From Somniosus microcephalus (taxonomy: Eukaryota): 64,000 nucleotides of DNA. Both the position numbers and the translations under genes were made by a program. Below, in pieces: positions 15,367-41,600 of this stretch; the stretch's first letter is position 1, and every line of letters begins with the position of its first letter. The DNA lies in NCBI GenBank assembly GCA_052327205.1, contig CM126219.1:24800001-24864000 (forward strand), given 5' to 3'. A model generated the notes under the pieces. That model was given only the letters and a program-made list of their open reading frames with translations, was not told the origin of the DNA and made no database searches.

Positions 15367-15728
15367 TGTTACTTTCTTGTTCTCTTTAGCAAAACGAAGA
15401 AGGCTTTACCACATCCCCAAGATGTTGGGTCATGTTTTTCTCTGACATTAAAGGCGCTATATAAATGCAAGTTGTTGTCTTACAAAAGCCCCTTACAATG
15501 ACTTACAATCACTATTGTTCTGCAGGGAATTGCAACAGTCAGTTTGTGCAGAGCAAGGTCCTATAAAGAGCAATTGAATGACTGACCTGTTTTTGGTTGA
15601 GGGAAGAATATTGACCAGAACACCGGAAAAACTCCCCTGCTCTTCTTTGGATAGTGCCATGGAATCTTTTACATGTTGCTAAGCAGGCAGACGGGGCCTC
15701 GGTTTAATGTCTAATCTGAAAGACGGCA

Positions 15729-17211
15729 CCTCCGACAGTGCAGCACTCCCTCAGTACTGCCCCTCCGACAGTGCAGCACTCCCTCAGTACTGCCCCTCCG
15801 ACAGTGCAACACTCCCTCAGTACTGCCCCTCTGACAGTGCAGCACTCCCTCAGTACTGCCCCTCTGACAGTGCAGCACTCCCTCAGTACTGCCCCTCCGA
15901 CAGTGCAGCACTCCCTCAGTACTGCCCCTCCGACAGTGCAACACTCCCTCAGTACTGCCCCTCTGACAGTGCAGCACTCCCTCAGTACTGCCCCTCTGAC
16001 AGTGCAGCACTCCCTCAGTACTGCCCCTCCGACAGTGCAGCACTCCCTCAGTACTGCCCCTCCGACAGTGCAGCACTCCCTCAGTACTGCCCCTCTGACA
16101 GTGCAGCACTCCCTCAGTACTGCCCCTCTGACAGTGCGGTGCTCCCTCAGTACTGCCCCTCCGACAGTGCAGCACTCCCTCAGTACTGCCCCTCCGACAG
16201 TGCAGCACTCCCTCAGTACTGCCCCTCTGACAGTGCAGCACTCCCTCAGTACTGCCCCTCCGACAGTGCAGCACTCCCTCAGTACTGCCCCTCTGACAGT
16301 GCAGCACTCCCTCAGTACTGCCCCTCCGACAGTGCAGCACTCCCTCAGTACTGCCCCTCCGACAGTGCAGCACTCCCTCAGTACTGCCCCTCCGACAGTG
16401 CAGCACTCCCTCAGTACTGCCCCTCTGACAGTGCAGCACTCCCTCAGTACTGCCCCTCCGACAGTGCAGCACTCCCTCAGTACTGCCCCTCCGACAGTGC
16501 GGTGCTCCCTCAGTACTGCCCCTCCGACTGTGCAGCACTCCCTCAGTTCTGCCCCTCCGACTGTGCAGCTCTCCCTCAGTACTGCCCCTCCGACAGTGCG
16601 GTGCTCCCTCAGTACTGCCCCTCTGACAGTGCAGCACTCCCTCAGTTCTGCCCCTCCGACTGTGCAGCTCTCCCTCAGTACTGCCCCTCTGCCAGTGCAG
16701 CACTCCCTCAGTACTGCCCCTCTGACAGTGCAGCACTCCCTCAGTACTGCCCCTCTGACAGTGCAGCACTCCCTCAGTACTGCCCCTCCGACAGTGCGGT
16801 GCTCCCTCAGTACTGCCCCTCTGACTGTGCAGCTCTCCCTCAGTACTGCCCCTCTGACAGTGCAGCACTCCCTCAGTTCTGCCCCTCCGACTGTGCAGCT
16901 CTCCCTCAGTACTGCCCCTCTGACAGTGCAGCACTCCCTCAGTTCTGCCCCTCCGACTGTGCAGCTCTCCCTCAGTACTGCCCCTCCGACAGTGCAGCAC
17001 TCCCTCAGTTCTGCCCCTCTGACAGTGCAGCACTCCCTCAGTACTGCCCCTCTGACAGTGCAGCACTCCCTCAGTACTGCCCCTCTGACAGTGCAGCACT
17101 CCCTCAGTTCTGCCCCTCTGACAGTGCAGCACTCCCTCAGTACTGCCCCTCCGACAGTGCAGCACTCCCTCAGTACTGCCCCTCCGACAGTACAGCACTC
17201 CCTCAGCGCTG
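15729..17211. repeat. 33-bp minisatellite (about 45 units, CCTCCGACAGTGCAGCACTCCCTCAGTACTGCC) expanded inside a minus-strand SacSINE1-like copy (about 15520-17300)
   Basis: Direct tandem array; SINE core on the left and SINE head on the right. Confidence 0.95.
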
Positions 17212-19992
17212 CACTGAAGTGTCAGCCTAGATAATGTGCTTAGGTCTCTGGGCTGGAGCTGGAACCCACAACCCTGTGACTCCAACGACGGTGCAAGCTC
17301 AGACAATTGGTCTTTTATTGTTTCTTCTTGCCATTTTTGCCTTCCCTTAAATGAAGATATCAAGAAGTTATTACAAGCGTTCTTTTAGTTTTCAAACTCT
17401 ATGGGGTCGATTTTCCTGGAGCCGTCAGGTGGGGTTTCAGGCGTGTGGGGGGGGGGGGAAATTGCAAAAATAGGGGGTTGTGACACCCCCCCGCCTGATT
17501 CCCCACCCAGTCCGACTTTCACCCCGGCGTTTCAATTCGACCCGAATCAGTCCCGCCCGCAGCAGGCGGGACTGGACGTCAGGAGCCTAATCACCAATAA
17601 TTGGCTTCTTTAATGCCATTTTAAGGGGCCCTTGCTATTTTCAGCCTTTTCACACGCTAAACACACCTGGTGGAAACCCCGCTGATGAAACCTGGCGTGA
17701 ACAATGTCGGCTTGCTTACTTTCAGCTGCAGGTCAATCAGGAAAGAAGAGATTTAATCAGACAACATTTGTATGTTGCAGGACTTTGTTGTTTCAGGCTT
17801 GGGGCAACTTGTTCCAGGCTTAGGCACAGCTGTGGAAGGTTGGAACCTCACACACTTCTCCAGTGTGAGCTCCTGGGAAGCCCCTCTCGCCACCCTCACT
17901 CAGCGCTTCCTCAACTGAGGCACCTACCAGAAGCATGGGAGGCCTTTTTTTCCTTCCCCTCTTGGCATTAGAGGACCTCCAGCCCCAATCGCGAAATGAC
18001 ACACGCCACAACTGCAGAAGTTGCCATCTGAAATTTTATTTACAATAACCAACTGATGGCATTTTAAAAATAAACACAACATTTCGCCCAAGTGACTACC
18101 CTTGTGGTTAGTGGTGCTTTATTTTTCTCTTACACGTGCTCCTACATTGTGGTTCCCCTGTGGCTTCAGCAGATGTGGAGGCCCCTTGCTCACTTTCCTG
18201 CTGCTCCTGTCTCGACACCTTTGGCGGCCGTCCTCTGGGGTGGCGAGCCTGTGAGGGCTCGTCGGCAGTCTGCTGCTCCTGCGGCTGTGCGGGGGTTGAG
18301 ATGTCTATCTCACTTGGGTGTGGACTCCGGCAGGGCTCTGACCAAGGGCTCTGCAGTGGCATGGAAGTGTGAGCGCTTGGAGAGGAGCCCGCACTTCCTT
18401 GAGGTCTGCCACCAACCTCCCTCTCATGTGTCAGGTCCCCATCAGTGCCTGCAAGTGGCTTGAGAGCAGCTTGCTGCACATCAGGGGGTCCATGGGGACT
18501 CGTTTCTACAATGGCAGTCCTACTCAGAGGGCCTGCCATGAAGGTCTGGTTTCTCTGCTCAATAGCTGACCATCGCTCCTCCAGAGATGTCAGTCTATAC
18601 TGAACACTCACCATGTTTTCAACACTCTGGCGACTTAGCTCCTCCATGGCCGTAGCCATCCTCTCCTCTACTGTAGCCATCCTTTCCGCGGAGGTTGCCA
18701 TTCTTTCCGTGGTGATGCGTTCATGCGCCAATGACTCCACAAAGGCTCTGCTCATGTTCGCTATGGACTCCTCCATTCGCTCCACACTCGCAGCGACCCT
18801 GGAGACAAAACCTGCCAGAGACTCCTGCATCTGTGCATGGAGATCCATCACCTCTTCTCTTGCGGATGGCCCCAGAGGCAGAGGGTCGACATGCAGCAGA
18901 GCTGAGCTGGCAAAGTCCTGCGCCCTCTGACGAGGACTCTCCACTGCTGTCCCTGTCTCCACCATCTGCTGATGCTCACTTGTGAGCTGTGATACACCAG
19001 GTGACAACACTACTCTATCTCGCGAAGGTCCCATGAGGTGTGAGTGTCTGCGCTGATGCCGGGTGCGCTGAATTCTGCTGACGCTGCGCCCTCAGAGGTG
19101 GGTGCTTCCTCTGAGGCGTCTGGCTGCTCAGCCTCTTCCTCCTCCGCAGTGGGGACGGGGGCTTCGGATGGTCCTGTGGGGGAGTAAAGGAAAGAGTTAG
19201 AGATGTGATGCCAAGGTTACATGCACATTGGATTTTGCAGATGTTCATAAGTCCAAATGATGTAGCTTCAGAATCATAACAGCGACTCATGCTATGTCAA
19301 TGAGAGAGATGGAAAACTATTCTGTCACCAGCTTGCGGGTCTGCCCCTGTCTCTCCTTCCCCAGCTTCCGCAGCCACATCAGCCCTGACAATTTCCAGGA
19401 CTCCTTCCTCCCAGGGGGTCAGGTGGGCTATTGAGGGTGGGCCTCCTCCAGTCCTGGCTCGTTCTCTGTTGTTGTGAGCTCTCTTTTCCTGCAATGAGGG
19501 AGACAAGTGGAGTTTGAGTGAGAATGAAGGAGTGAGTGTAGAGATTGCATAGCATAGATACTTAGAGGGAGACAAAGATGGTGTGAGACTGCAAGACCAA
19601 GGGCCCTCCCTGTGTGTTGTCAGTTGTGCTGAAAGCATCAGAGTGAGAGGGAGTGTGAGGGCTGCATGGTGGAATAGTTATGTGAACGTGAGCATAGAGA
19701 GAGAGGGAATGGGTAAGGGTGTATTGATGTGACTGTTAAGTGAGATGTGGAGGAAGAGAGTGCTAAAGCTGAGTGCTGGTGGGGAAAGGCAATGGGGATC
19801 AGTTTGAGGGTGGCGGAAACTTCATACTTACTTTTCCTGTATGATGAAGGTCATGGAATCGCTTCCGACACTGTATCCAGGTTCTTCTGGTGACTCCCAG
19901 CGAGTTGCCATCTGCTGCCACCTGCATCCATGCAGCCTTGGTCTCAGTGGGAGGCCTCTTCCTCCCTGACCTAGGGAAGAGGACCTCCCTGT

Positions 19993-32623: not shown

Positions 32624-35600
32624 CTAGAAGGAAACAAGTTTCATTAATTCACAGTTTGTTTAAAAATTGATGTAAATTGATGTCGAGCATTGCATATTAA
32701 AGAGACATTGGGGGCGAATTTCGATTCCGCCCGAAACAGGGGCGATGTCCGAGGTTGAGGCAGTGCCACTCGCTCGAAACCCACATGGTTTGAAAGCTGC
32801 CGATGAGTAGCGGGCATCGAATGGGCATCCCACCGCAGGTCGCCAATTGTGGGAGGGCGGGAAAACCAGCCGGCCACCGCTCCCAGCCGGCTGGGAGGTC
32901 GGGCATGAGGAGGATGGGAGCTAAGCCCGCAGGAGGTTGAGCGCGGGCTGGCAGCAGCCTGCATTATTTCCTCCAGGCCCCACAAAAACTCTCACAAAGA
33001 AGTTTTTAGGCTTTTCCTGCCGCCAGCAGTCATTTAAGGGCCGCTGGTTAGGCCGCTCAGCCCTTGGTACGCTCAGCTCATTGGTACCTCAAAATTGCAA
33101 ATGGGGATCTACAACCGGCGGAGAGACCCGATTTGCATATTTAAGCAGCATCCTACCATGCTGCTCGCCTATTTGCAGGCCCAACTGAAAATTGCACCGG
33201 ACGGCTCCCCGCAACCTGCCCCAACTCCCCCCGCCCCCTCCTCACTCCCACCCATCCCGCTCCCGATTTTCAATTGCAGGCTGTCCGTTTTCAAGTGAGA
33301 AATAGGTAGAGGTCCCTTGAAAATCGCTCCCATTGTGGAACTTTGCAGGTAAACCCAGTTCCTGGGATCTCGAGAGACAGGTTGCTCAGTAAAGTTAGTT
33401 CAATGAGCAGCATTGAGGACAAGTCATGATGTTAAGTGGTGACTTATGAAATGTAAATTTTGAAATGTGGTTTTATTTTCACTCAGCATCAGCTGACAAA
33501 ATATAGGTGGGCGGTCCCTCTGATTAAAAGCTTGTGATGGTGTTACAGGTCATTTTATCACATGATGTTGCTCCTTTAAATGGCCGTAGACTTGAACACT
33601 GGGTTAAATATGTCAGGCAGTATCTGTGGAGAGAGAAACAGAGTTAACGTTTCAGGTCGATGACCTGCTGAGTATTTCCAGCATTTTCTGTTTTTATTTC
33701 AGATTTCCAGCATTCCTTCTCCCTCATCTGCTTCTCTAACCGCCCCTTAAATGCATCGATACTATTCGCTTCAATCACTCCCTGACGTAGTGAGTTCCAC
33801 ATTCTCACCACTCTCTGAGTAAAGATGTTTCTTCTGAATTCACTATTTGATTTCTTGGTGACTATCTTATATTGATGGCCTTTAGTTTTGCTCTTCCCCA
33901 CAAGTGGAAACATTCTTTCTGTGTTTACTCTATCAAAACCTTTCATAATTTTAAAGAACTCTATTAGGTCACCCCTCAGCCTTCTGCCTGTTCATCTTTT
34001 CCTGATAGGTGAGCCCTCGCGTTTCTGGTATCATCCTTGTAAATCAAGTGGGTATTATTTCCTTAATGTTTGTACATATAAGCCATACTACAGCTCCTGT
34101 TATCAAGTTTATTATTGGTATTACATACTCATTGGAAAATCCAACCATAATTTATGATCTCCACTGTTGAGGTATACGAGGGTTGAAGTCACACTATGTG
34201 ATATTAATAACCAATGTGATAATGCACTCATGTGAAATTCCTCTGGCTGCCATTTTAACCAGAGGTCTCAGCCTGTCGGGTTAATGTCTTAAGTAGTGGG
34301 TAATGAAATTTCAGACAAATATGCTAACAAGTGAATTACTAATATCAAACTGTGCGATTTAACACCACAATGTGTGGCTCTGTATTGTTGTGTCAATTTT
34401 GGTTTAGGATATTAATGCTAGCAATTCACATTAATTTCCTTCTAGTCAGGTAAGCAGAAGCAATGCCAACTGAAAGGATGATTTTCAGACGCATTTAGGT
34501 AATTTAAGGGCTCGCCGTACTGACTTTCTATTAAGCAACAACAAGTAGATGGTTCTGGCCGTAGAAAGTCACGACAAGGAATTACCTGGATTAATTTTAA
34601 GACCACTGTGTAGCTTGCTGATGAGAGGATAACGTCCCTGGTGGCAGAAAGTGCCACTGAAATCATCCAGAGAAAGGGTCCACACCATAGCTCCTCCAAT
34701 ATTGTTTTGCTTCAGCCACTTGATCTGGAATACAATATGGAAAAAATTCATCATGTGAATCACTGATAGCCTGCGGGCTTCTCTTCAAATGTGGTTGCAA
34801 GATCTAAAATATCCCAAATCATGAAGATAAAAACCACTCTGATTCTTATGTGTTATGTCTGAGGAAACACTCGTATCGGTGTGCTATTAACCAACTGCTT
34901 TTATTTCCAGATCCTCTAAAATCTTCCGGTCAAAGAATAACAAAAGCAATACAAGAGAGACCTTAGCGTGTAATTGCTACAATGTGCTTACTCCCATCAG
35001 GGAGCCATCCAGTTTTCAGTTAACTATATGCAAGTATCATTATGGAAGTACGCAGAGCTCCATCGCAACATACATATTGCTTTATATGGGAGTCTAGGGG
35101 GAATGAGGAAAAAAATTCCCATTTAGAAACACCTCAGTTTCAATTATCAATAATATTACTGCATTCGTATCTAAGGTGGCTCTGTTTCTGTCACAGTGTG
35201 TGGGTTGGGCACAATGAGATGAGTCGAAAAATAATATATGAATTTCTCGCTATATTGTTGTGTGAGGGGGTGAATCAGAAATAACAAGAGCAGCAATTGT
35301 AAATGTTGTCATGCCTAATTGTGTCTAACAAATTACAAAAGAAAATGGTTGGTTTTCCAAATACAGTTATTGAAAATCCCCATGATTAAAATAATGCTCA
35401 GAAAATCGTGGCTGCATTTTAGTTCTTGATATGTGGAGCTGGTGGGCAAGGCTCCTCAGTGGCTATGTGCATTCGGAAAGTCAGTCTTAAAGTGTACAGC
35501 AGTATGCATAGCGCACCTTGTCTTCATAGCTTTGTGGATTATCATAGCCAACCCATTCATTTCCCTTATATGCGTATGGAACCATCTGTGAAGAGTCCCA

Positions 35601-38600
35601 TTTTTCGGTCGCACCTTTTAAGAAGAGGCAGATCTGTTGAAAGAATGAGACATTAGGATGCAACACTTTGTAGTTAAATTTTCACTGGTTTGCAGTAATT
35701 CAAGTGCAGTAAAGATCTACTTAAATTAATTAGCTCCTGTTAGGTTTACTCAGCTCTTCTGGACTTTTTCTTCTGTAATACACATTACACTTTACTTAGA
35801 ATCTATGGGGAGTACAGTAATTTGATTTTGGGTGATAGTGTAAAATGGGGGAGATCGATTCAGCCACCTGTTATACATCTCTCCCAGTTTTCAGCGGGAG
35901 AGCTCGTTACTTTTGAACTATCACCCAAAGTCAAAAATATCCCCTTTGAATTTTGATCCAAATTACCAAACCCCAAGCAATGCCTCATAAGGTGACACAA
36001 ATATTTACTGAAGGGTATCTGGCCATTCCCCACATGGCAAGTTCCCAGTCTCGACCATGCCATTATGAGGTGGTGCCCAGCTGAGGCCAGTAGCCTTCTG
36101 ATAGAGAGGGTATCCAAAGAATTGGCTCAAGAATGATATTGGAAGTAACCTCAGGCCCAGGTCTTTGCCCAGCTTATCCATTAGGGAATTGTGCAAGGCA
36201 ATCAGGAACAAACGGCGGAAAGAAAAATAACTTTTACACCTGGCAAAAACTAACTGCTTGAAAAGGAAGCATCTGAAGTTATAGAGTTTTATAAGATAGT
36301 AAATGGCATGGAAAAGGTAAATCTGGAATAGTACTTTAAACTGTGGGAGTAAGACAAGGAGACACAAGTTCAGACTAGGAATAGGTAACTTTAGGCTTGA
36401 TATCAGGAGATCCTTCTTCACACAGAGAGAATTCCAACAATTGGAATGAACATCCCAGTAGAATTGTAGGGGCAAAAACTCTGGAAGTATTTAAGAAACA
36501 ACTGGATGCTGCAATAGGACTGTAGGGCGCTTCTCGAAGAATAAACTAATATGGCCACAATGGTCTTCCTCAACCATTATTATCTTGTGATAAACAGGCG
36601 ACGAGATAACAAAGTTCCCAGTCAGTCTAAATTGTTTCCCCTCCTCCCATCCACCTTAAGGAAATTGATATATAATTAATGTCAATTAAGCTTATGTTTT
36701 CTCATGGCAAAATATGAGATTTTCAAGGAGCTTGGATAGTTAGTATATTTTGTAAATACCTCAAAGTAGGCCAGGAACCCAGTTTGTTGTGTGTAATGCC
36801 CAGCTGGTCCAGCGCCATTTGCTGGGGCATCGACAGCAGTGTTGGATGTGCTCAGTCTGAATGTGTGACCATAAGCAGGGAATCCAGCGTTCAGTTTCTC
36901 TGCAGGAGCTCCGTTATCCTTCCAGTATTTCATGGTGTAGGCCTGTGCAGAGATTGGTAACATTAACGCTTAGTTTCAAGAAGACTGCAAGCATTTTATA
37001 AAAGATGGTGAGCTAGTTGTAAAACTGAAATAATTAACATTCATGAATGCGTACCATATTAAAGTACCGGTTACCGCCTTGGGCGGAAGGGAGGGCATAA
37101 AGAGGACTATTTTCTCCAGCGAAGGTATTCCATGGACCATAGAAATCATATGTCATCACATTGAAAAAGTCTAGAGTTCTGTAGGAAGGAAGATCTGTGA
37201 GTAACATTGATATCTTACCAAGTAAAATATATATTCATTCTTAACCTTATTCTCAGTCTTCTCTTCTTCCTGTAATCTAAAGCCCAATTGATGTTTCACC
37301 TCCCTTACTGCTCTGTTTCCCTTGTCTTCTCTCTTACTCTTTTCCACCATGGTATTGTCCTGCACTACGGGCCTTGGCCCATCATCTAGGTTATTCAGCA
37401 ATAAAATAATGGAATATTTTGACTAGGATATCCCTGAAAATATAAATTATGAACATGATCGTTGCTTTGTGACACAATTGTAGTGTTTGTATAGGAAAGA
37501 AAGCAGTGTGTTAATTGCCTTAAATTCTCCGGTAATGTTTTATGAACATATTGAGATTATATTCAAATCTTAATCTGAGCGTTGAACCCACTGGGACAGA
37601 CTATCATCAAACAGCTTCACCTATACTTAACTGAGGACTTAGTGCTACCTCCCAATTGAGGATAGAAATTAAGGCAAAAAAATCCCCCAGAATATAGTGA
37701 ATATGTATAACTGGCTCTATTGATTTTGATACCTTTAAAGAGATTGATATCTGTTGAGAAGAGGGTCAAAGCTTATCGAGGTATTAACAGCACTGCTTGA
37801 GTTTTGTTTTCCCTAGGGAAGATAAGGAAAGGAACTATTGGTGTCCCTTAATGTAGAGCATTAGCAATACTGTAGGAGGGAAACACATAATAGGCAAATC
37901 ATTCATGAACCCTGCAATGAGCAGGATTGAAGGGCTAAATGCCTTTTTCTCAATTCAGCCGTTTTTAAGTTATGATTTCAACAAATAACTTAAAATTCAT
38001 TCCGGTGGCTTCCAACCTGAATTAAAGGCTTCAGTTAACTAAGAGCTTTATAGCAACTCCAACCGCCAGAAACAAGGAGTAGTTGAGGCGAATAGTAGAG
38101 ATGCATTTAAGGAGAAACTCGATAAGCACATGAGGGAGAAAGGAATAGAAGGATAGGCTGATAGGGTTAGATGAAGTGAGGTGGGAGGAGGCTCGTGTGC
38201 AGCATAAACACCGGCACGGCCTGTTTCTCTGCTGTAAATTCAATGTAATTCAATCAGTAACTAGTGGTGTTCCGCAGGGGTCAGTGCTGGGTCCCCAACT
38301 CTTTACAATCTATATTAATGATTTGGAGGAGGGGACCGAGTGTAACATATCAAAGTTTGCAGATGATACAAAGATGGGAGGGAAAGTAGTGAGTGAGGAG
38401 TGATATGCCATCAATAACTCAAAGACAAGGATTCAACTGAAGGTTTTTAATCACTAAGAACATTGCAGGTCTTCCCACATCGGGTTCGTCTGGTAGGAAT
38501 GACTCATACAGCTCTTGAGACCTTTATATGGCAAAAGACAGGGGCGTAGCCAATACACACAATAGGAACAAAAGGGGGCGGTTCACACAATACAAGCAGG

Positions 38601-41600
38601 TAAAACACATGGGCTGATGAAGGCATATATTTCATCACAAGGAGGACATAAAAAACCTGCAAAGTGACATAGACAGGCTAAGTAAGTGGGCAGAGATTTG
38701 GCAGATGGAATACAATACTGGAAAGTGTGAGGTTATGCACTTTGGCAGGAAAAATCATAGAGCAAGTTATTATCTTAATGGCAAGAAACTGGAAAGTACT
38801 GTAGTACAAAGGGATCTGGGGGTCCTGGTGCACGAAACTCAAAAAGTTAGTATGCAGGTGCAGCAAGTGATCAAGAAGGCCAATGGAATGTTGGCTTTTA
38901 TTGCTAGGGGGATAGAATATAAAAACAGGGAGGTATTGCTGCAGTTATACAAGGTATTGGTGAGACCGCACCTGGAATACTGCATACAGTTTTGGTGTTC
39001 ATACTTAAGAAAAGACATACTTGCTCTCGAGTCAGTACAAAGAAGGTTCACTCGGTTAATCCCGGGGATGAGGGGGTGGTCATATGAGGAGAGGTTGAGT
39101 AGATTGGGACTCTACTCATTGGAGTTCAGAAGAATGAGAGGCGATCTTATTGAAACATATAAGATTGTGAAGGGGCTTGATCGGGTGGATGCGGTGAGGA
39201 TGTTCCCAATGATGGGTGAAACTAGAACTAGGGGGCATAATCTTAAAATAAGGGGCTGCTCTTTCAAAACTGAGATGAGGAGAAACTTCTTCACTCAGAG
39301 GGTGGTAGGTTTGTGGAATTTGCTGCCCAGAAAGCTGTGGAAGCTACATCATTAAATAAATTTAAAACAGAAATAGATAGTTTCCTATAAGTAAGGGGAA
39401 TTAGGGGTTATGGGGAGCGGGCAGGAAATTGGACATGAGTCTAGGTTCGGAATGGCCATGGCCCTGTGGGTAGTGGAGCGGGCCCAGGGGCCGTGTAGCC
39501 TGGTTCTGCTCCTACTTCTTGTGTTCTAATTCTGTGTTAGATTTCAGGAGATGGTTTTATTCCTGTTCCTGGCTGGGGTGGAGATCGCCTTTACAGAAGG
39601 TAAGTACTGTAGAAAATATAGGGACAGAGTGATCTCCTGGAAAAGTTTCGATCGCCTAGATGGGTCGGAGAGGAATTTCCCAGATTTTTTTCTCCCAAAT
39701 TGGCCATTGGGTTTTTTATCTGGTTTTTCGCCTCTCCCGGGAGATCACGTGGGTTTGGGTGGGATGGAGAGTGATAGAAGATTTGAGGTTAGGATCAGAT
39801 CAGCCATGATCTTATTGAATGGTGGAGCAGGCTCGAGGGGCCGATTGGCCTACTCCTGCTCCTATTTCTTATGTTCTTATGTAATATTTATCACTAAAGA
39901 AGGAAACATGAGCTTCCCTAACAACTGAGTGAGCTAATGCAGAGCCTGGTGTGGTACTGAGTATTATAGACCAGCAATTTCCGGGCATGCGCTGAGCGAG
40001 CTGATCTCCTCTATGCCGGTGCTACATTTGACCTATAAGATTGAAACCAGTACTCACTGGCCCAGCTGTGGAATCTCATAGGCCGATTCGATTGTGGATT
40101 TTCCAGCAGCCACCGCAGCTGAGAGTAAGAGCCTTGGTTTCCCAATACTTTTTCCTTCTGCTTCAAAGGCTGCTCTCAGTTCCTAAAAGCCAAAAATATT
40201 GTAGTTTCCCTTATTAACCGACTTGCACAACATGGAAGCTTCAAAAGACGACCAAAGGAACATTAGGTTCCTTGTTTTGAAAATGTATCCATGGACAATA
40301 ATGAAGCATTATTGGAATCCAACAAGGTGTTGTGTCACTTTAACATTGCGATTGGTTCCAGATTTTTTTCAAGGTTTATAAAGACTATTAAAAATCTTCA
40401 CATTTGCATCCCACATTAATACAAGGGTAGCTCAATCTTCATAGCTTTGTGGATTATCATAGCTAGTCGGTAGAGCATCAGACTTTTAATCTGAGCGTCC
40501 AGGGTTCAAGTCCCTGTTCGGGTTTTGATTTTTAAACAGACTGATACCTGGGATGGTAGGAATGACGTATGAAGAGAGATTGGGTCGACTAGGCTTATAC
40601 TCGCTGGAGTTTAGAAGAATGAGAGGGGATCTCATTGAAACTTATAAAATTCTAACAGGACTAGACAGACTAGATGCAGGAAGGCTGTTCCCGATGGTGG
40701 GGGAGCCCAGAACCGGGGGTCACAGTCTAAGGATAAGGGGTAAGTCATTTAGTACAGAGATGAGGAGGAATTTCTTCACCCAGAGAGTGGTGAACCTGTG
40801 GAATTCTCTACCACAGAAGACAGTTGAGGCCAATTCATTAAATGTATTCAAGAGGGAGTTAGATATATTTTTTAAGGCTAAGGGGATCAAGAGATATGGG
40901 GAGACGGCAGGGACAGGGTACTGAATTTGGACGATCAGCCATGATCTCATTAAATGGTGGAACAGGCTCGAGGGGCCGAATGGCCTACTCCTGCTCCTAT
41001 CTTCTATGTTTCTATGTTTCTATAAGGACATGTCACTGACACTAACTTGGTAATGTGTTTCATTTACTTACTCATGTGTTGTTACATTTTTCGACAAATG
41101 ACAAATAATTTATTCTGTGGGTAGTGTTTGGTTTTTGACAGTTCTTAGACTGAGTAACTAACCAGTTAGGTGCACTCGGTCCTACCTGTGTTAGGGTTGT
41201 GAAGAGCTGCTTGTCATGCGGGGGGCTTCCTCTTGACCCGGGATACTCCCAGTCTATGTCCAAACCATCGAACCCATATTTGCGCAGGAAGCTAATCGTT
41301 GACTTTATGAATGTTTGTCGATTTTCAGCTGTGGAAACCATGGCGCTGAACCTGGAGAAGAAAGTTAAAGTAAAATCCTCATTGAGAACAATGACTGGCT
41401 GTGAAACGACGGTGACATTTATTTTGCTCGTTTCTCTTCGAGTCTCCTACATATGTTTTTTGGAGTTTGGTGACTCTTGCCAACATATGTTAAGAAGCAA
41501 AACAATATTTGTTAGTCAATTGTTCTCATTTTATTTCATGAAGATTTTGAAAAAAATTGTTTCCCGATACAACAAATGTTTCCATCTTACTTTTGAGTTC

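Follow-up and report, generated by a model that had tools for sequence, protein, structure and literature searches.

A 28-nt antisense piece of a chitinase exon, lodged in the D-loop of a tRNA-Lys(UUU) copy within an intron of the same gene, was probably captured while a tRNA/CR1 chimera integrated there, which would make it an inert copying accident. By its arrangement, the element is a specimen of a known class, namely the small-RNA/LINE chimeras, with locally templated extra sequence at its 5' end. Capture during integration is preferred over a later repair event and, as read from the DNA, the cassette is most likely inert and not an antisense regulator. As a fossil of LINE integration, the element would preserve a tRNA-CR1 chimera that has not been amplified, such as is suggested to stand at the outset of SINE birth, and the empty site serves as its proof; it also suggests that integration or repair machinery can borrow a microhomologous template about 3 kb away and then return. 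Its interest is modest and lies with retrotransposon specialists; it would be greater only if an RNA is made and acts on chitinase transcripts.

Structure of the insertion and source of the exon piece

The window (the whole 64,000-nt stretch of DNA that was analysed) contains a chitinase gene on its minus strand, with a GH18 domain (assigned by Pfam) and a CBM14 tail. The element lies on the strand opposite to this gene, in the intron between exons 5 and 6, as the earlier note had stated (Table 1). The perfect match to exon 9, reported there as lying some 4.9 kb away, was likewise confirmed: in a self-BLAST of the window, 40436-40463 and 35521-35548 are identical at 28/28 positions (E 1.06e-6), and the exact match ends at both sides. 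The 28 bases derive from the 3' end of exon 9, the target stretch ending 4 nt from the exon 9 donor site, and on the tRNA strand the piece is antisense to the chitinase mRNA. Copy and template are separated by 4,915 nt in the window, by 4,012 nt in the filled paralogue and by about 3.3 kb when a CR1 block found only in the window is subtracted.

Two adjoining CR1 pieces (38250-39880) are present in the window gene and missing at the corresponding place of the paralogue; a similar block is found 26 kb off in the paralogue, at C18:25.05 Mb. Elsewhere in the window (15723-17212), a tandem array that repeats about every 33 nt lies within CR1-like sequence.

Table 1 Features of the insertion, its host intron and its template (window positions unless a contig is named)
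Feature	Position	Strand	Comparison
Template segment at the exon 9 3' end, with GTC and ATAGC at its ends	35520..35548	+	
Chitinase exon 9 (GH18)	35517..35633	-	
Chitinase exon 6, downstream neighbour of the host intron	40058..40182	-	
Left target-site duplication TACAAGG(G); TACAAGGA in the paralogue	40420..40427	+	filled vs empty site
First tRNA-Lys(UUU) segment, nt 5-17, nt 1-4 missing	40425..40437	+	
28-nt chitinase exon 9 copy	40436..40463	+	
Second tRNA segment, nt 7-73, starting again from the ATAGC microhomology; B box intact	40459..40524	+	
Gene-type 3' trailer, T5 run at 40529-40533, no CCA	40525..40535	+	
5'-truncated CR1 LINE 3' end with (TTTCTATG)n tail	40536..41020	+	
Right target-site duplication TATAAGGA, strict match AAGGA	41021..41028	+	filled vs empty site
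Chitinase exon 5, upstream neighbour of the host intron	41186..41351	-	
435-bp intron segment, 120 bp left of the insertion	L041:2061-1627 (minus); G000:C18:24788141-24787708		

From 5' to 3', the unit is composed of a tRNA head, the exon piece, the tRNA body, a trailer, a CR1 3' end of 485 bp and a (TTTCTATG)n tail. The tRNA copy stands directly 5' of the 5'-truncated CR1 and on the same strand, while the tail abuts the right target copy TATAAGGA, the first bases of which merge into it. At the other end, the last three bases of the left target duplication are also tRNA nt 5-7, resulting in a 3-nt microhomology at the 5' junction. The left target copy of the paralogue ends in GGA, again tRNA nt 5-7, and nt 1-4 of the tRNA are missing. 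Compared with the other 39 of the 40 scored copies, the CR1 part shows 96-97% identity, and the LINEs of this genome are presumably of the shark type. One CR1 copy of the same subfamily (L076, G000:C19:61.40 Mb) is located between unusually long direct repeats of about 50 nt. Across 30 CR1 loci, a survey of the 5' junctions and target duplications gave a picture too noisy to interpret.

The tRNA parts were compared with the intact tRNA-Lys(UUU) genes of the same genome, many of which stand in tandem arrays. In the first segment, G15 is changed to A in both filled copies and A7 to G in the window copy only; nt 15-17 of this segment overlap the exon-derived piece. The second segment shares a deletion of C13 and the changes G45 to C and G73 to T between both copies, and C72 to T is confined to the window copy. 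The trailer resembles those of the intact tRNA-Lys genes, and there is neither a CCA end nor an upstream flank, so that a pre-tRNA template would fit. The tRNA copy with its trailer ends at or just past the T-run, where 2-3 junction bases are left unassigned. The tRNA-CR1 junction can be placed anywhere within about 8 nt, which counts against the preferred model.

The tRNA is the front of one CR1 insertion and not a resident gene. The earlier note had placed the start of the CR1 at 40535; CR1 does follow the tRNA, but its start was moved to about 40536, and tRNA and CR1 together form one insertion. A resident tRNA gene that was damaged later was ruled out, since the site is empty in a third paralogue.

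Filled and empty sites

A search with the left flank identified a second filled copy, inverted, at G000:C18:25.03 Mb, and a third homologous stretch at C18:24.79 Mb. Both filled copies carry the tRNA plus CR1 (about 600 bp) between TACAAGG(G/A) on the left and TATAAGGA on the right. The third paralogue (G000:C18:24787587) is empty and reads from the left flank through one TACAAGGA into the right flank. It belongs to a broken gene from which exon 5, half of exon 6 and exons 7-9 are missing. The filled copies diverge by 2.1% from each other and by 2.4% each from the empty copy (2,371 intron sites compared). This dates the insertion to a time not long before the last duplication, an estimate that gene conversion could blur. 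The earlier note had proposed to look for the cassette in the paralogous intron, and it is indeed present in one paralogue of about 2% divergence, at C18:25.03 Mb. The older paralogues at C18:24.88 and 24.99 Mb gave no alignment at the insertion site.

These genes belong to a cluster with at least 10 GH18 chitinase exon-9 loci (G000:C18:24.78-25.54 Mb). The cluster comprises two recent inverted pairs, i.e. the window gene with 25.03 Mb and 24.88 with 24.99 Mb, in addition to the broken third copy at 24.78-24.80 Mb. When the 28-mer was compared with 10 exon-9 loci of the cluster, the two host genes matched at 28/28 positions and the other eight at no more than 22/28.

Further copies were sought genome-wide with exact patterns for the split D-loop, the trailer-CR1 junction and the private changes; only the two filled loci were found, and such counts are lower bounds. 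A broader D-loop pattern, covering tRNAs with Lys-type D-arm words at exact matches, returned four matches, of which two were the cassettes and the others intact tRNA genes that happen to have a match upstream. The scan for other D-loop cassettes that the earlier note had proposed found none by exact pattern beyond the two host loci.

This copy number also bears on whether the cassette belongs to, or founded, a tRNA-Lys/CR1 SINE family. A tRNA head, a CR1 tail and a target-site duplication do make up the structure proposed for the birth of such a family (PMC5729268), and tRNA-Lys/CR1 as well as shark HE1/HER1 pairs are listed in a table of PMC3747384. However, the junction pattern matches two copies only (an exact-match lower bound), both in duplicated flanks, and a T5 run separates head from tail. 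This run would stop Pol III short of the CR1 tail, so that a Pol III transcript would lack the tail that CR1 needs, preventing spread of the SINE type. With no copies at unrelated sites by exact patterns, membership of a SINE family was rejected as extremely improbable.

The left flank and the insert were also compared with four of the 22 listed public sequencing runs (X1-X4). A 90-nt contig of X1 (organism A; depth 39) equals 40368-40457 without a difference and spans the target-site duplication and the tRNA head, reaching 22 of the 28 bases into the exon copy; the junctions on the side of the tRNA body fall outside its span. Of the junctions that the earlier note wanted to see in reads, the left side is accordingly supported through 22/28 bases, and read support covers that side only. 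X1 is possibly the sample behind the assembly, and X3 is the same sample as X1. In X2 (organism B; six records compared), the sole listed contig that reaches the insertion site is empty; filled copies may still exist in this organism. Two of the four contigs compared from X4 (organism C) reach the site and both are empty. The X4 contig that bears exon 6 contains the start of a 435-bp intron segment that is kept in the third copy and lost in both filled copies; near its start, the segment has TAATACAAGG, the same word as the target site. Missing cover of the insert in X2 and X4 was not counted as evidence, because X3, from the sample of X1, lacks it as well. The single run on record as RNA contained 0.08 of the words.

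That the element is a chimeric join made by the assembly is barely conceivable. The possible identity of X1 with the assembly's own sample, and the fact that its contig stops before the insert-to-tRNA and tRNA-to-CR1 junctions, leave some room for such an artefact. Against this, the same junctions occur at two loci 186 kb apart, each with private differences, and the 90-nt contig matches the left side exactly at a depth of 39.

Capture at microhomologies and comparison with known systems

The exon segment starts with GTC (corresponding to tRNA nt 15-17, with nt 15 an A in the cassette) and ends with ATAGC (nt 7-11), a microhomology of 2/3 at the left and 5/5 at the right junction. Since both ends of the exon piece share microhomology with the tRNA, tRNA nt 7-17 are duplicated around it: the cassette reads tRNA nt 5-17, exon and tRNA nt 7-73 with C13 deleted. 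On the plus strand of the 10.4-kb gene span (cassette excluded), three of six ATAGC words (35508, 35526, 35544) are clustered at the template, which makes the captured stretch the densest local site of microhomology. These three words are 18 nt apart and straddle the exon 9 donor site, and the intronic one is altered in the paralogue. The alternative to a regulator that the earlier note had itself offered, an insertion templated through microhomology where the CR1 has its 5' junction, thus gains support from the target-site duplication, the empty site and the microhomology at both ends. Two details count against capture: the left microhomology is readable only with one base change (G15 to A), and the right junction requires a 1-nt deletion.

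The preferred sequence of events would be as follows. The CR1 reverse transcriptase would prime at the target and copy about 485 nt of CR1 RNA, and then move over to a pre-tRNA-Lys at its oligo-U end. Once close to the 5' end of the tRNA, the growing strand would anneal via ATAGC to exon 9, about 3.3 kb away, copy about 23 further exon bases and return to the tRNA via GTC, with tRNA nt 7-17 being duplicated in the process. The 5' end would be joined to the target via GGA, with loss of nt 1-4, and the host gene would be duplicated afterwards. The exon template could be DNA or chitinase RNA, and either polymerase option would fit the sequence: capture in first-strand synthesis would need a plus-strand template, whereas in second-strand synthesis either the minus DNA strand or chitinase RNA could serve. 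Models of 5' joining are reviewed in PMC2912911.

An alternative in two steps, likewise inert, assumes that the tRNA/CR1 chimera integrated first and that a later break in the D-loop was repaired by end joining of the polymerase-theta type, copying the patch of exon 9. Templated end joining leaves microhomology at both ends together with a short duplication. The cassette displays these traits, and the insert is located about 10 nt inside the 5' junction instead of at the junction itself. Yet the branch shared by the filled copies after their split from the empty copy is very short (2.1% vs 2.4%), so that two independent events would have to strike the same 20 bases within it. Neither of the two filled loci has an uninterrupted D-loop, and templated extra bases are described as frequent at LINE insertions' 5' junctions in the zebrafish work cited below. 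Repair after integration is on balance unlikely, and capture during integration is retained as the working model.

Precedents are known for parts of this model. Small-RNA/LINE chimeras within one target-site duplication are reported in PMC4476161 for the L1, L2 and RTE clades, a single U6/CR1 case from turkey being unresolved. The U6/L1-type chimeric retrocopies of that study are alike in that a copy of a Pol III RNA precedes a 5'-truncated LINE in the same orientation, within one target-site duplication, an arrangement attributed to template switching. They differ from the present element in its head of the pre-tRNA type with a trailer, its CR1 LINE and the local third segment that interrupts the head. 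A tRNA-CR1 chimaera formed by template switching is the proposed origin of the bird SINE PittSINE/TguSINE1 (PMC5729268), with which our element shares the tRNA head, the CR1 tail and the target-site duplication. That chimaera was inferred from an amplified family, whereas the one described here is unamplified, has a terminator between head and tail and carries a damaged A box. The shark and ray HE1 SINE and HER1 LINE (PMC3747384) also combine a tRNA-related head with a CR1-like tail, a likeness in described architecture; HE1 is a high-copy V-SINE family, while the near-intact tRNA-Lys copy is present twice.

As to the extra sequence, zebrafish LINE inserts often bear additional 5' bases copied from flanking DNA by annealing (PMC4245944, PMC4760211), ZfL2-1 makes 5-bp target duplications (PMC4245944), and PMC11702581 describes de novo L1 insertions that contain sequence copied from DNA in the vicinity of the site. 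The ZfL2 (PMC4760211, PMC4245944) and L1 (PMC11702581) cases resemble ours in the neighbourhood-templated extra sequence at the 5' junction, the short target-site duplication and the 5' microhomology. They differ in that the present template is located about 3.3 kb off in an exon and that synthesis returned to the tRNA. This distance counts against capture, as the available excerpts of the cited work describe flanking or nearby templates and give no distance of 3 kb. A narrow word search of the open-access literature found no tRNA pseudogene with an antisense exon insert in its D-loop, nor a natural antisense RNA on a tRNA scaffold.

RNA potential and conservation of the cassette

The earlier note described a tRNA scaffold with its arms, B box and T-run retained, about 5 of 7 acceptor pairs and a split A box. 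This description stands, except that tRNA nt 1-4 are absent and their place is taken by the target-site duplication, the pairs at positions 1-2 being contributed by the target flank; the acceptor stem has 5/7 pairs in the window copy and 4/7 in the paralogue. It is possible to draw the D stem and the anticodon and T arms, and Rfam matches a tRNA at 40459-40517 (40.2 bits, model positions 7-64 of 71), while ARAGORN reported 0 tRNAs in the window. Scored with A-box and B-box patterns that we take to be the standard ones, the cassette keeps the B box and has lost the strict A box, and through the C72 to T change the acceptor strand of the window copy ends in a T4 run. As a functional tRNA gene, the cassette thus falls short: there is no complete cloverleaf with a 7-bp acceptor stem and no intact A box.

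The best predicted fold is not a cloverleaf (-28.9 kcal/mol, z -1.8; -28.4 kcal/mol in the comparison with enforced arms), and enforcing the D, anticodon and T arms gives a predicted -24.3 kcal/mol, at a cost of about 4 kcal/mol. Within the fold, the 28-mer has a mean unpaired probability of 0.46, i.e. about half of it is predicted to be paired in a hairpin. The duplex of the 28-mer with its exon 9 target is predicted at -46.5 kcal/mol. A passive, low-level Pol III transcript may nevertheless arise from the cassette.

The earlier note had raised a possible tRNA-scaffolded cis-antisense regulator. For such a role, the cassette would be transcribed by Pol III and its antisense segment would pair with exon 9 of the two host chitinase mRNAs, dampening them or altering their splicing. 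The intact B box and T-run, the three arms that can form and the stable predicted 28-bp duplex would allow it, as would a target that ends 4 nt from the exon 9 donor site and a 28-mer specific to two of ten chitinase exon-9 loci. However, the insertion is young, rides on a CR1 and faces empty sites in the third paralogue and in contigs of other organisms. The A box is split, nt 1-4 are lost, only 4-5 of 7 acceptor pairs remain and the C72 to T change adds a T4 run; a hairpin is predicted to engage about half of the 28-mer, and no second such cassette was found by genome pattern. Together with the lack of a selection signal or of excess conservation between the two copies (see below), this leaves the regulator unsupported and quite improbable. 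A combined version, in which the one-step LINE accident produced a transcribed Pol III mini-gene with a perfect antisense guide to the exon 9 donor region of just the two host chitinases and tunes their expression or splicing, appears very improbable from the sequence. If true, a natural antisense regulator on a tRNA scaffold would be seen arising here. That the copy acts as a pairing site inside the pre-mRNA was considered separately and rejected, as the copy there is a direct repeat.

The two cassettes differ at 2/108 nt (1.9%), both in the acceptor stem. Conservation did not depart from that of the introns (2.65%; P 0.45) or the CR1 (4.8%; P 0.10): the cassette is nominally more conserved between the paralogues than either, but not significantly so, and two copies give little power. 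The probability of zero changes in 28 nt is 0.25-0.56 at the intron and CR1 rates, hence the perfect identity of the exon piece needs no selection. On the whole CR1 tree, which took in 22 of 29 copies (seven were left out for >60 ungapped mismatches), this probability is 0.13. The insert and exon 9 show zero variation between the two host genes, so no signal of co-variation is possible.

The tRNA part carries four changes common to both copies in about 69 nt, slightly more than the 8/430 in the CR1 (Fisher P 0.07), which counts against the preferred model. These four (G15, the C13 deletion, G45 and G73) may be errors made at formation or traits of a source gene that was not found. Exact patterns for the cassette's trailer variant or the G45 change identified no other locus in the genome as a source tRNA gene; a trailer pattern matched one ordinary tRNA gene.

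The activity of tRNA genes is governed by genomic context (PMC6961574). Upstream CpG density is 0.44-0.46 at the cassettes and 0.14-0.84 at 13 intact genes, so that the two are not separated by this measure. On G000:C39, tRNA-Lys(UUU) genes are arrayed in tandem at intervals of about 1.79 kb (e.g. at 22.38-22.40, 24.12-24.14 and 10.20-10.22 Mb).
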